The position numbers were made by a program. This document shows, piece after piece, positions 21,001 to 27,000 of a DNA stretch of 54,025 bases. Source of the stretch: a virus (lineage: Duplodnaviria; Heunggongvirae; Uroviricota; Caudoviricetes); the IMG/VR virus record IMGVR_UViG_2526164690_000030, one strand, 5' to 3'. Every line of letters starts with the position of its first letter. The stretch's first letter is position 1.

Positions 21001-24000
21001 AAGCCCCTTTGCTAAAACTGGAAATTCATGACGCTACCGGCACCGTAATTGATGACTGGAAAGCCAAATACGGTGCATCGCTGGTGGCTGAAATGGGCGA
21101 TCCAAACGGTAATGCAGGCACTTTTAAAACAGATTTCTTTGTTACGTCTGCAATGCTGGCTGGTGATGTTGTTACCGTTATTGCTGTCAGTGAAGACGTG
21201 CGCAGGTTTAAGATCCCCTCCCCGCGCACAAATTTACATACCAACAAAACACCAGACGCTATATTCAAGGCATATTCCGGCAAGCTTAAAATTACCAGCA
21301 GCGTGCTAAAACGCGCAGTTACATATCATCTGAATGCCGGTGACAAACCGTCAAAAATGCTTTCGGAGATAGCGCGAGACAAAGGTGCATTATGTTGGGT
21401 ATGCCGGGGGGAATTTAACTTTTACACCCTGGCTGATCTGATGAAGCAAACGCCATCATTTACCTACGAGGGGAATAACCCTAAAGCAGAATACACTTTG
21501 TCCAAAATGCGCCTACTCCAACAGGAACATGCGACAACAGCAAAGAATCAATATCGTTTTGTTGGGTATTCCATGACCGATGGCTACGTCGAATATGGCG
21601 ATAGCTCACTCCCAGTGCGTTATATATCCGACTCTGATATGGAAACTCTTCGCAATATGCAGCTGTCTCTCGTCCCCAAAATGGATATAGAAGTCGCAGG
21701 CAATCCTGATATAAAACCGGGGATGGTGATAGAGATTATCGTATACCGCTATGACCAGGAAAACCGCATTGATGAATCAATGCCCCGTAAGCTGATAGTA
21801 AAAAATGTTGCGCACTTTGAAGACCGCGTAGGCTACACAACACGAATGATATTGGGAGTGCCGAACAAATGAAGCGTAGAGCGCAAATTGTTGGAACTGT
21901 GCACCCGGCAGGGCTTATGCGTGCTCAAGTCCGTGTTTTACCTGACTGGAATGGCGTTCCTGATGACGATCTACCCTGGGCGGAATACCTGTTACCCATC
22001 GGAAACGCTTTTGTACCCACAGTCAAAGGTGACCTGGTCTGGGTAGAGTTTCCTTATTTAGATGTTAACGGTCGAATAGACACCAGACGCCCAATGATAG
22101 TTGGTGCCGCTCAGGATGCACCGGGAGGAATTCCAAACGTTGCACCAGAAGCATCTGGCAAAGGCAACGGCTGGACGCCGCCGGAAGTAGATGGAGCACC
22201 TCCCCGCCCCCAAATCTCAGCAACGAAAGACTTCGTTATTCACCGCAACAATATTCTTGAAGTACGAACTGCTGGTGGCGGCTATGAAATTGCCAATACG
22301 GCAGCAGGCGCAAGGATTGGCATGAATGAGTCCGGGCAGATATATATCATTGGTCCGGCTGATGTAATCGTGAATGCAGGAGGGAGTGTTAACGTCAAAT
22401 CAGCCAACAACATCAATGTTAATGGGGAAAATATAGCTGTCACCGCTAACGGAGACATAGCTTTCAAGGCAGGAGGAACCTTTCAGGCCACTGCTGGCAA
22501 CTTCGATTTCAAGAAAGGATAGAAAATGCACCCATTTGTGTTAGATAATTAATATGTATTTTCTAACACAAATGGTGAGACATGAGATCAGTCGCTTTCA
22601 AAAATATCTTCATCTATCGTCTTTCACGCGAAGTTAGCTGGGATACTGCAGAAGTAAATGCAGCCCTTAGCAAGTTTGTGTTTACCCCATGCGGTTCTCA
22701 GGATATGGCTAAAGCTGGTTGGACCTCCGTTCTTGGTGACAACCTCACCCATGAATACCAGGGTTTTCTTCTGATACAGCATAAACGAGAGGAAAAAATC
22801 CTACCTTCTCAAGTGCTCAAAGAAGAGTTACAGAAAAAAATCCTGACACTTGAAGAAGAGCAAGACAGAAAGCTGAAGAAGACCGAAAAAGATTCGCTGA
22901 AGGATGAAGTGCTTCACTCTCTTCTTCCTCGTGCTTTCACGAGAAAATCACTCGCCAAAATCCTGATCGACCGCAGAAACCATCTGGTATTCGTTGAGGC
23001 AAGCAGCGCCAAAAAGGCAGAGGACCAGCTGGCTTTATTGCGAAAATCGCTCGGCAGCCTGCCTGTCATTCCATTCACACCACGCGAACCGCTGGAAATT
23101 ACAATGACCGAGTGGTTTAAAAACGGCTTCCCTGCCGGATTTACAGCAGGTGAAGACGCCACATTAAAGGGTCTGCTCGATAATGGTGGTGCCGTTCGCT
23201 GCAACAAAGTTGATCTACAGTCCGACGAGATTATGTCTCACATTGAGGCGGGGAAAGTAGCTACGACCGTTGCAATTAACTGGATGGACCGCGCGTCGTT
23301 CAGAGTCAACGATGATATGAGTATCAAAGCCCTGACATTCTGTGATGATCTCTATGACCAGAACGACGATATCGACCGGGAGGATGTAGCACAACGATTT
23401 GATGCTGATTTCGTGCTCTTTACGGGCGAATTATCTGCACTGTTTAACGCGCTGGTGGAGGCCATTGGCGGTGAAGCAGAACGATAATAACCGACCGCTT
23501 GTTGTGAGTCTTTGTGATTTTACGGGGGCAATGGTTGCCCCCTGGCTGGAATACGGTGTCGATGCCGCTATCGTCGATCCACAGCACTTATCGACCAGTG
23601 ACGAGCGGATGCAATCAGGTGCCGTTCTGACGCGTATTAGTGCGATCATCGATAGCGATGAAGTATACGCTTTTCTCCGTAAGAATTTGCAGCGCATCGT
23701 GTTTCTGGCCGGGTTCCCACCGTGTACTGACCTGGCTGTTTCCGGCGCGCGCTGGTTTTCGGACAAGGCTAATAAAGATCCGGTTTTCCAGTTCAAAGCA
23801 ATGCAGGTTGTCTGGCAGTGTTATGACATTGCAAAGATGATCGGTTGTCCGTACATGATTGAAAATCCGGTCAGCAAAATATCGACATTCTGGCGTAAGC
23901 CAGATCACATCTTTCACCCTTACTTCTTCACTGCATATTGTCAGGAAGATAACTACACCAAAAAAACATGCCTCTGGAGCGGCCAGGGCTTTGTCATGCC

Positions 24001-27000
24001 TGATGCCCTAATGGACGAATCATTAGGCAAGCCAGATAACAGAATCCATGCCGCGCCACCAGGGCCTGACAGGGCTAATTTTCGAAGTGCTACTCCACAT
24101 GGATTCGCAAAGGCAGTTTTCGAAGCGAATAAGGGGGTGCTCTATGAGTAAATCTATAGCAAGCATAGCCATAGAAAAACAGGATACGATGGCTGAAATT
24201 AGCTATATGCGCACCATTCGGACTCCGGATGAATATGAGCGTCCGATATTCAAATGGGTAGGTGGTAAATTCTCAGAATTGCCTACAGTGCTTGAGCATC
24301 TACCACACGGTAAGCGGTTAATAGAACCATTCGTTGGTGGCGGTTCCGTATTTACGAATGCAGGATTTCGCCACAACCTGCTTAATGATATTAACGGTGA
24401 CCTGATTAACTTCTATCAGACATTGCAGCGAGAAGGACATTCGCTCGTCACGCTGTCATATAGTTTTTTCCAAAATTACAACAACGCTGACGCTTACCTC
24501 GAAGTGCGTGAGGCATTTAACAGAGGAAAGTATGACCAGCTACATCATGCTGCCGCCTTTTTGTACCTTAATCGGCACTGTTTTAATGGCGTAACGCGGT
24601 ACAACCAAAATGGCGAGTTCAACGTGGGGTATGGCAAATACAAAGCGCCCTACTTCCCACATGCAGAGATGGAGGCATTTTTGGCTGATGACGTACTCAA
24701 AAACACGTCCTTTGTATCAGGTGACTTTGCTGGCGTCATCGAGGCGGCTGGTGAAGGCGATGTGATTTTTTGCGATCCGCCGTATGAACCGCTGCCGGAT
24801 ACAGAAGGGTTTACCAGTTATTCAGGAAATAGCTTCCGTTTCGACGAACAGAAACGGCTGGTATCTCTATTGGTGGAAGCCCACCAGCGCGGCGCTAAGG
24901 TAGTGATAACAAATAGTGGTGCGCCAAACATCCGTGAACTATATGAAGGAAACGGGTTTAAAGTACATCATATGGCAGCCAGACGGTCGGTGTCCTGCAA
25001 GGCGTCAACACGTGTAGTTGCTAACGATATAATTGCAATAATGAAGTAAAAAACGCCGCAGTAGCGGCGTTTACTTTTTTATGTGGCGAAATACCTATTA
25101 ACCTAACTTCGCCCAGGTATCACGCAGCCCAACGGTGCGGTTAAATACCGGTTTTTCCGCCGTAGAATGGCGGCTGTCGAGGCAGAAGTAACCTTCACGC
25201 TCAAACTGGAATGCTTTACCCGCAACCGCATCTTTCAGCGACGGTTCAGCAAAGCCCTGTTTGATCACCAGCGATTCCGGGTTAATCACCGACAGGAAAT
25301 CATCCGCAGCACCTGGGTTCGGCACGCTGAACAGACGGTCATACAAACGGATTTCAACCGGCAGCGCATGTGCCGCGCTCACCCAGTGAATAACACCTTT
25401 GACTTTACGACCATCTGCCGGATCTTTGCTTAAGGTATCGGCGTCATAAGTACAGAAGATGGTGGTGATATTACCTTCGGCATCTTTCTCGACGCGTTCT
25501 GCCTTAATCACATAAGCATTACGCAGACGCACTTCTTTACCCAGCACCAGACGTTTGTACTGCTTGTTAGCTTCTTCGCGGAAATCGGCGCGATCAATCC
25601 AAATCTCACCGCTAAACGGCACCTGACGGCTCCCCATTTCCGGTTTGTTCGGATGGTTCGGCATGGTGACCATTTCGCCTTCGCCCTGATAGTTTTCGAT
25701 AACCAGTTTCACCGGATCGATAACCGCCATTGCGCGCGGCGCATTTTCGTTGAGATCTTCACGGATGCAGGATTCCAACGACGCCATCTCAATGGTGTTG
25801 TCCTGCTTGGTCACGCCGATGCGTTTGCAGAACTCACGAATAGAAGCAGCAGTGTAACCACGACGACGCAGACCGGAAATGGTCGGCATACGCGGGTCAT
25901 CCCAGCCTTCAACGTGCTTGTCGGTCACCAGCAGGTTCAGCTTACGCTTGGACATCACAGTGTATTCCAGATTCAGGCGCGAGAATTCGTACTGGCGCGG
26001 GTGAACAGGAATGGTGATGTTGTCCAGTACCCAGTCATACAGACGACGGTTGTCCTGGAACTCAAGCGTACACAGAGAGTGCGTAATACCTTCCAGCGCA
26101 TCGCTGATGCAGTGGGTGAAGTCGTACATCGGGTAGATGCACCACTTGTTGCCAGTCTGGTGGTGTTCAGCAAACTTAATGCGGTACAGCACCGGGTCGC
26201 GCATCACGATAAACGGCGAAGCCATATCGATTTTCGCACGCAGGCAGGCTTTACCTTCTTCAAAACCACCGGCACGCATTTTTTCGAACAGCGCCAGGTT
26301 CTCTTCAACGCTGCGATCGCGGTACGGGCTATTTTTACCCGGCTGCGTCAGGGTGCCGCGGTATTCGCGGATCTGTTCCGGCGTCAGTTCGTCAACATAC
26401 GCCAGGCCTTTGTTGATCAGTTCAACAGCATAGGCATGGAGTTTGTCAAAATAATCGGAGGAGTAACGGATGTTGCCAGACCAGTGAAAACCTAACCATT
26501 CAACGTCGTTTTTAATCGACTCGACGTACTCGATATCTTCTTTTACCGGGTTAGTGTCGTCGAAACGCAGGTTGCACTGGCCTTTATAGTCCTGGGCGAT
26601 CCCGAAGTTCAGGCAGATAGATTTCGCATGACCAATATGCAGATAGCCATTCGGTTCCGGCGGGAAACGGGTATGTACTGTGGTGTGCTTACCACTGGCC
26701 AGATCTTCATCGATGATCTGACGAATAAAGTTAGTCGGGCGGGCTTCTGCCTCACTCATTGTGGATTCCTCAAAGCGTAAACAACGTATAACAGCGTATG
26801 ATCTTATAAGCCGAATAGGCTGACAACCACTAGTTGATTAGAAATTGCTTTCTATCGTTATTTCAATAATGAGCTTTTTCATGAAGCCCACTTTTGCGCA
26901 TAAGTAAATTAATGACAAATGGTACACAATTGGAACCAAAAAGGATGTAAAGGTGCACCAAATTAGTGGTGTATTGGTGCACCTTTGGTTCAAGACTTTT

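Follow-up and report, generated by a model that had tools for sequence, protein, structure and literature searches.

Introduction

A close counterpart of the locus treated here is found in phage P1, in which dmt follows hrdC, the operon being under the control of the C1 repressor, and in which Dmt is a single polypeptide of 754 amino acids with a C5-cytosine methyltransferase domain (PF00145) followed by a Dam domain (PF02086). Both genes are dispensable in a Dam+ host (PMC10695390), and pac cleavage in P1 is regulated by Dam methylation (review PMC12707154). The locus examined here, positions 22582–25049 of the IMG/VR virus record IMGVR_UViG_2526164690_000030 (Caudoviricetes; 54 025 nucleotides, the whole of which is referred to as the window), carries the same order of functions: an RdgC-family gene, a short open reading frame (ORF) for a C5 methylase-like protein, and dam. 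An earlier inspection of the window (the sequence-only reading) had correctly named the single bifunctional Dmt of P1 and had described the short ORF and dam as a split methyltransferase pair, the C5 part of which might be degenerate or repurposed.

The second system of relevance is the “Dcm” protein of phage K42 (711 bp gene, close to KarlJaspers/Bas06), with the residues C82, E128, K175, and K176. This protein triggers the retron Ec86 and raises the level of 5-methylcytosine (5mC) in the multicopy single-stranded DNA (msDNA) of the retron as determined by liquid chromatography coupled to mass spectrometry (LC-MS), a quadruple mutant does neither, the protein worked when expressed alone, and its specificity for CCWGG was assumed rather than mapped (bioRxiv 10.1101/2023.08.16.553469). 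Its role as the Ec86 trigger was accepted in later papers. Within the family to which it belongs, the formation of 5mC has been shown for K42 Dcm only, in vivo and by LC-MS (bioRxiv 10.1101/2023.08.16.553469). The K42/KarlJaspers Dcm, gp40 of phage tonn, and bas15_0036 of phage PaulFeyerabend (Drexlerviridae, Dhillonvirus; PHROG 757) belong to the same family and length class as the short protein of the window.

Results and Discussion

Identity of the locus: Three genes on the same strand were found within positions 22480–25120 by an ORF listing and by direct reading, and both of their junctions overlap (rdgC and the short ORF by 17 nt, the short ORF and dam by 8 nt). Positions 22400–25100 match Escherichia phage D6, which is a P1-like plasmid prophage, with 100 % identity. 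In the GenBank record of D6, the product of rdgC is entered as an RdgC-family protein, that of the short ORF as a “putative DNA-cytosine methylase”, and that of dam as a Dam “similar to C-term half of P1 dmt only”. The genes are therefore already annotated in a published phage genome, and the finding is real and largely ordinary. The locus is likely to be the rdgC–dcm(short)–dam operon of a P1-like phage-plasmid of the D6 type, in which the product of the middle gene is a DNA C5-cytosine methyltransferase of minimal size that is complete and stands alone. Gene structure, family membership, conservation, selection, and the exchange of the cassette are demonstrated here, and 5mC formation has been demonstrated in the literature for a relative; that the protein of the window is itself active, and what its target sequence, regulation, and role may be, is inferred.

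Family membership and constraint: The short protein was aligned with PHROG 757 (“DNA methyltransferase”) with an E value of 3.6e-76, residues 2–213 of the protein covering positions 19–222 of the 247 positions of the profile. It had been held to be incomplete, but this alignment with the phrog_757 family runs end to end. A tblastn search gave full-length relatives in 1591 phage genomes, among them T1-like Drexlerviridae, Dhillonvirus, Klebsiella siphoviruses, and large myoviruses. More than 7900 homologues were obtained in a protein search; the 120 matches listed were mostly 206–258 amino acids long, and a Pfam domain was present in one of these, derived from an upstream RdgC portion. In an exhaustive profile search, the family comprised 2575 clusters (50 % identity); the lengths lie at about 200–290 amino acids, and their median is 229. 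Across 118–126 diverse members, C85, E131, P133, K164, and W169 (numbering of the D6 protein) are invariant, and about 20 further positions are conserved in at least 90 % of the sequences. One metagenomic member (P0218, 548 amino acids) contains a Hint/LAGLIDADG intein located exactly between GFPP and the catalytic cysteine of the FPPC motif; inteins are typically placed in critical active-site motifs.

Orthologues of the short gene are intact in five diverged D6-like plasmids (L006–L010), and the ratio of nonsynonymous to synonymous substitution rates (dN/dS) relative to D6 is 0.06–0.11 at dS values of up to 1.6, similar to those of rdgC and dam. Judged from these alignments, the short ORF is a complete, conserved family member under purifying selection, neither truncated nor degenerate.

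A relative that bears on function is tonn gp40 (236 amino acids when read from MYKG...), in which the cysteine, the glutamate, and the two lysines are located at exactly 82, 128, and 175–176, as in K42 Dcm. The D6 protein and tonn gp40 share 37 % identity over their full length (E value 2e-41), and C85, E131, and K164/K165 of the former were aligned with C82, E128, and K175/K176 of the latter. Like the K42-type Dcm, the D6 protein has no target-recognition domain (TRD) and is a phage-borne orphan; the K42-type gene sometimes lies near a Dam-like gene. The two differ in the loops 150–162 and 177–205, which are shorter in the D6 protein, and in their setting: the D6 gene belongs to an operon with rdgC and dam in a temperate phage-plasmid, whereas the K42-type gene is found in a lytic siphovirus.

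According to one alternative, the C5 domain of a P1-type Dmt was separated from its Dam half and survives in the short ORF as a remnant, truncated, degenerate, or repurposed, that no longer methylates DNA; this is highly improbable. Such a remnant would account for the small size of the ORF and the missing canonical TRD, for the lack of a Pfam or NCBIfam match, for the non-canonical motif I, and for automated labels that pair a hypothetical protein with an N-terminally incomplete Dam pseudogene; it is at odds with the end-to-end match to a family of the same length, with the invariant catalytic residues, with the dN/dS values at so large a dS, with the absence of any detectable resemblance in sequence to the C5 portion of P1 Dmt, and with a downstream Dam that covers TIGR00571 in full and keeps its start. 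An active protein, K42 Dcm, is moreover a close relative of a full-length homologue, tonn gp40. The suggestion of a degenerate or repurposed C5 part was for these reasons abandoned.

Relationship to canonical C5-cytosine methyltransferases: The C5-methylase-like motifs reported in the sequence-only reading are present (FPPC and IENP). The key residues are those of motif I (L-C-D-F-T-G, residues 14–19), D36, D61, the FPPC motif with C85, and E131-N-P; further features are Y162-T-K-K-T, R205-S-A-T-P, and a C-terminal helix. FPPC (82–85) and ENP (131–133) follow predicted β-strands at 76–81 and 128–132, which is the order of motifs IV and VI after strands β4 and β5 in canonical C5 methyltransferases. 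The short ORF was matched by no Pfam (E≤1) or NCBIfam model, so that it is judged to be C5-like from its motifs, its predicted fold, and its homologues.

Sequence comparisons with the canonical enzymes gave little. No match to PF00145 at E≤10 was found among the 30 members of alignment A1, and 8 of 118 diverse relatives matched this family below threshold (best E value 0.0039); PF00145 was nevertheless the only Pfam family matched by more than two of the 118. Comparison of the family (30 and 126 sequences) with the N-terminal half of P1 Dmt and with Escherichia coli Dcm by hhalign gave E values of 0.29–0.59 against thin template profiles; the non-significant alignment with E. coli Dcm sets PC on PC and ENP on ENV, the rest of its register being wrong. 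No significant sequence match to solved structures in the PDB was obtained by phmmer and two profile searches, and a fold search alone did not separate C5 methyltransferases from other Rossmann methyltransferases. The link to PF00145 thus appears to be only remote at the level of sequence.

Relative to the canonical enzymes (PF00145: E. coli Dcm, M.HaeIII, and the catalytic domain of DNMT3A/B), the D6 protein falls below every sequence threshold, contains ENP in place of ENV, retains one conserved glycine in motif I, and has no TRD; its motif IX/X region would, by alignment, be compressed to R-S-x-T-P...G-F-A-x-A-V. Between motifs VIII and IX, where canonical enzymes hold the TRD, the gap from P177 to R205 amounts to 27 residues (family median 27.5), in comparison with about 170 residues between QRRRR and RRLTP in P1-type Dmt. 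The observation that a canonical target-recognition region is missing was accurate; as a sign of damage it was misread, the alignment indicating that the missing domain is a feature of the whole family and not a lesion.

A caveat concerns motif I, which serves the binding of S-adenosylmethionine in canonical enzymes: it reads C-D-F-T-G in the D6 protein, F-D-G-S-G in tonn gp40, and F-x-G-x-G in canonical enzymes. The acidic residues D36 and D61 are present downstream of it. The consensus of the family is [F/C/Y]-D-x-[T/S]-G, in which x is hypervariable (Gly, Tyr, Leu, Arg, and others). A separate inactive subfamily marked by the non-canonical motif was considered; the position is hypervariable throughout the family, and no evidence of a functional division was seen. 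An active, cysteine-dependent pyrimidine-C5 enzyme of other substrate or chemistry was also considered, acting on single-stranded or hairpin DNA or on tRNA (compare Dnmt2), methylating almost without specificity, or transferring a group other than methyl. We regard this as unlikely: the similarities that it invokes are weak or non-significant, the spread of residues at the variable position of motif I suggests that no constraint acts there, a canonical DNA C5 methyltransferase domain occurs as the alternative allele in the same operon, and the neighbouring glnS is convergent, with a terminator in between.

Exchange with the P1-type Dmt: No similarity between the short protein and the N-terminal half of P1 Dmt was detectable (BLASTP E value 2.9, hhalign E value 0.29), whereas D6 Dam is 69 % identical to residues 478–753 of P1 Dmt. 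The short ORF and dam are therefore not simply a split Dmt: the description as a split pair holds for Dam, which corresponds to the C-terminal half of Dmt, and fails for the short ORF, which is not the detached C5 half. D6 differs from P1 in having two polypeptides encoded in different frames in place of one, in a C5 module of a different family that is about 250 residues shorter and has no TRD, and in lacking uhr, which lies upstream of hrdC in P1.

In some D6-like plasmids, the slot between the same upstream tail genes and the same downstream glnS is occupied by a long Dmt of the fused type. The fused protein of pE2863-2 (L020) comprises 762 amino acids with PF00145 and PF02086. Overall, it shares 85 % identity with P1 Dmt, the C5 half being nearly identical. 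Dam of the window and the Dam half of the fused protein share 94 % identity, including a linker that corresponds to the first 25–30 residues of the stand-alone Dam. In blastn comparisons of the window with L020 and a second such plasmid (L019), the flanks are 94–98 % identical up to position 23487 and from position 24219 onwards, and nothing was matched between these positions. A segment of 731 bp in the window is replaced by 1441 bp in the fused-Dmt plasmid, comprising a canonical P1-type C5 methyltransferase domain and linker in frame with the same Dam. The ribosome-binding site and the GTG codon, located in the conserved left flank, are shared by both alleles. The locus is thus polymorphic: two C5-methylase modules that are not orthologous have been exchanged as a cassette at a single site, which argues that they perform the same job. 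The short allele is covered to at least 80 % in about 88 of the 101 E. coli genomes that carry the region and in 98 of 121 plasmid records.

A more far-reaching proposal, which we regard as speculative and rather doubtful, is that the rdgC–dam slot of D6/P1-type phage-plasmids is a hot-swappable cytosine-methylase cassette: the TRD-bearing fused allele and the TRD-less allele would give different 5mC patterns, host systems that read 5mC would select between them, and the minimal enzyme might be relaxed or structure-dependent in its specificity or targeted by Dam, in place of reading a site of the classical kind. If this were true, Type II and Type IV restriction and sensors of the retron Eco1 type would be candidates for the selecting systems.

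Relationship between the short enzyme and Dam: The short enzyme might need Dam for binding to DNA or for targeting, either in a complex or through an occasional fused product, so that the two would form a two-subunit Dmt. This is very unlikely, even though the overlap of 8 nt and the junction are conserved in all D6-like orthologues and a covalent link between this Dam and a C5 domain exists both in the alternative allele and in P1. Most family members have no adjacent Dam, K42 Dcm was functional when expressed alone, and no slippery sequence is visible at the overlap. A fusion of a short-family methylase with Dam does occur in the metagenomic protein P0121 (563 amino acids; L017, 218–1909), which consists of the methylase (residues 2–253), a linker of about 50 amino acids, and Dam (303–546), and which is preceded by a gene other than rdgC. 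The fusion was seen on a single 2-kb contig and may be real or an assembly artefact; no plasmid copy was fused among the matches listed. The D6 pair as a frameshifted fusion of this kind was rejected, since the junction, the starts, and the stops are conserved in four diverged plasmids and no slippery site was found.

Relatives elsewhere lie alone in early regions of prophages, and on this account the enzyme is regarded as a stand-alone orphan. In Cronobacter lambdoid prophages the family member is located between ninB and ninE/F/G with no adjacent Dam, and members in Pseudomonas and Agrobacterium prophages likewise have no adjacent Dam. In phage PaulFeyerabend (Dhillonvirus; L004, 1498–3548), the short Dcm-like gene overlaps the upstream helicase gene, and a homing-endonuclease gene and one further ORF separate it from a small Dam-like gene. 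This spaced arrangement suggests that the tie between the two types of methylase is loose outside P1- and D6-like elements.

Proposed function: According to the favoured interpretation as a minimal DNA C5-cytosine methyltransferase, the middle protein would comprise no more than the catalytic Rossmann domain. The nucleophile that attacks C6 of cytosine would be Cys85 of FPPC, the general acid at N3 would be Glu131 of ENP, and K164/K165 would contact the substrate, and about 27–32 residues would occupy the place at which canonical enzymes hold a TRD of about 100–170 residues. The three genes would be translationally coupled by their two overlaps (17 and 8 nt), each with its own Shine–Dalgarno sequence. 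The operon would probably be repressed in the prophage and switched on at induction or infection, by analogy with the C1-controlled hrdC–dmt operon of P1. Together, the short enzyme and Dam would place 5mC and N6-methyladenine (m6A, at GATC) on replicating phage DNA, which would serve the control of packaging (Dam) and probably also shield the DNA from restriction by the host. In this slot, the short gene is a non-orthologous replacement of the canonical C5 domain that is fused to the same Dam in P1 and in some D6-like plasmids.

Start codon of the short methylase gene: Three candidate starts were compared, namely GTG at 23471, GTG at 23504 (as in the sequence-only reading), and ATG at 23531, which was chosen by the NCBI Prokaryotic Genome Annotation Pipeline (PGAP). 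The short ORF most likely extends over 23471–24151 (226 amino acids, with the overlap of 17 nt with rdgC), as in the GenBank record of D6. In four D6-like plasmids at dS values of up to 1.6, the codons for N-N-R-P-L (23488–23500, 3′ of the rdgC stop codon) have changed synonymously (CGA/AGA/AGG, CCG/CCT, and CTT/CTG/CTC) while the encoded residues have stayed the same; these codons are therefore taken to be translated. In a Shigella plasmid, the frame opens just one codon ahead of the GTG equivalent to 23471. The GGAGG sequence ahead of this codon is kept in L006–L009 and in the fused-Dmt allele of L020, but it is also rdgC coding sequence. Several residues precede the first β-strand in homologues, and the long fused Dmt allele is annotated from the same GTG. 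Initiation at GTG 23504 would cut into strand β1 and disregards the translated N-N-R-P-L codons, so that this start is probably 11 codons too late; the ORF is indeed short, as had been noted, but most likely not limited to about 215 amino acids. Initiation at ATG 23531 would lose β1 and motif I and also disregards these codons.

On an identical plasmid (L002), the PGAP annotation gives the middle gene as a hypothetical protein from ATG 23531, without motif I, and Dam (24231–25049) as a pseudogene “missing N-terminus”. The latter call presumably stems from the best database matches being Dmt fusions of 754 amino acids. The Dam entry is often absent from plasmid gene tables at this locus, which fits a pseudogene call, as pseudogenes are not listed there.

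rdgC and dam: The outer genes are assigned without difficulty, and both had been named correctly before. The RdgC homologue matches PF04381 with an E value of 4.7e-103 (345 bits, profile positions 3–298 of 298) and NCBIfam NF001462 with 385.8 bits (cut-off 330), and it is 52 % identical to P1 HrdC over its full length. Dam matches PF02086 with an E value of 1.9e-56 (profile positions 1–252 of 253) and TIGR00571 with 249.4 bits (cut-off 114.85, positions 2–265 of 267), and contains the catalytic motif DPPY in the context FCDPPYEP. Its ATG (24144) overlaps the TAA of the short ORF (24149–24151), in agreement with the previously described overlap of the stop of the short ORF with the start of a complete Dam, and its start position is kept in L006–L009. 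The dN/dS values are 0.06–0.09 for rdgC (orthologues of D6-like plasmids versus D6) and 0.07–0.12 for dam (two informative comparisons, L007 and L008).

Upstream repeat and regulation: The spacer of 59 nt upstream of rdgC contains an inverted repeat, the arms of which are 94 % complementary and which ends beside the ribosome-binding region of rdgC. As RNA, the repeat has a folding energy of −23.6 kcal/mol (z-score −4.4). A promoter scan gave a weak promoter-like sequence, TAGAAA-18-GATAAT, at 22520–22549, overlapping the repeat. The 16-mer ATTTGTGTTAGANAAT occurs, with at most one mismatch, at 8925–8940, 22534–22549, 22558–22573 (minus strand), and 32462–32477, that is, upstream of a ref homologue (8925), upstream of rdgC (as the inverted pair), and just ahead of the D6_52 start (32462). 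Its distribution resembles that of a dispersed operator for a repressor, comparable to that of P1 C1, with a different sequence. In P1, ref is under the control of a C1 operator. Because ATTTGTGTTAGANAAT is found at ref and rdgC and the C1 operators of P1 are found at ref and dmt, the prophage repressor may control the D6 operon as well. The features of the locus are collated in Table 1.

Table 1. Features of the rdgC–dam locus, in coordinates of the window.
Feature	Position	Strand	Basis or remarks
Operator-like 18-nt inverted repeat in the 59-nt spacer upstream of rdgC	22532–22575		arms 22532–22549 and 22558–22575
First gene of the operon: rdgC/hrdC homologue, for a DNA-binding protein associated with recombination	22582–23487	+	301 amino acids; PF04381
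GGAGG Shine–Dalgarno sequence of the short methylase gene	23457–23461	+	inside the 3′ end of rdgC, 9 nt before GTG 23471
Minimal C5-cytosine methyltransferase-like gene, D6 orf64	23471–24151	+	226 amino acids; motifs, homologues
Exchangeable cassette: body of the short methylase gene and dam codons 1–25	23488–24218	+	blastn versus L019 and L020
AAGGGGG Shine–Dalgarno sequence of dam	24131–24137	+	direct reading
dam, complete D12-class N6-adenine (GATC-type) methyltransferase	24144–25049	+	301 amino acids; PF02086, TIGR00571
Intrinsic terminator, bidirectional, separating dam from the phage-borne glnS, which is convergent	25051–25072	both	terminator scan

Source of the window and flanking regions: Sequence related to the locus was found on plasmids in 101 of 5426 complete E. 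coli genomes, and Salmonella, Shigella, and Citrobacter plasmids also carry similar sequence. The terminator downstream of dam was found on both strands and consists of a stem of 9 bp with six G–C pairs and T-runs on either side. The glnS gene (25098–26759, minus strand) is kept in D6-like plasmids; in the literature it is discussed as a possible cargo or maintenance gene. Positions 3500–8500 correspond, with 100 % identity, to a transposon of the TnAs1/Tn21 family with a class 1 integron (intI1, an aadA-type cassette, and a resolvase); this block occurs on more than 5000 plasmids, has a GC content of 0.60–0.66, and lies in a GC-rich stretch that extends roughly over positions 1–9000. Because of this transposon and integron, the window is taken to be a D6-like phage-plasmid that carries a resistance transposon, and not D6 itself.

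Implications

The result is mainly corrective: the short gene is no broken methylase and belongs, as a genuine member, to a family that ranks among the commonest orphan methylases of phages and prophages and that also includes the known trigger of retron Ec86/Eco1. Because this family has no Pfam or NCBIfam model, the protein is labelled “hypothetical protein” in RefSeq, its start is placed downstream of motif I, and a functional Dam is recorded as a pseudogene in some D6-like records. Plasmids of the D6-like type occur commonly in E. coli, Salmonella, and Shigella, and the methylation genes that they carry can influence both barriers due to restriction and the triggering of defences in the host. 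The short and the canonical fused alleles, occurring in near-isogenic plasmids such as CP011430 and AP018804, respectively, would provide a convenient natural experimental system.

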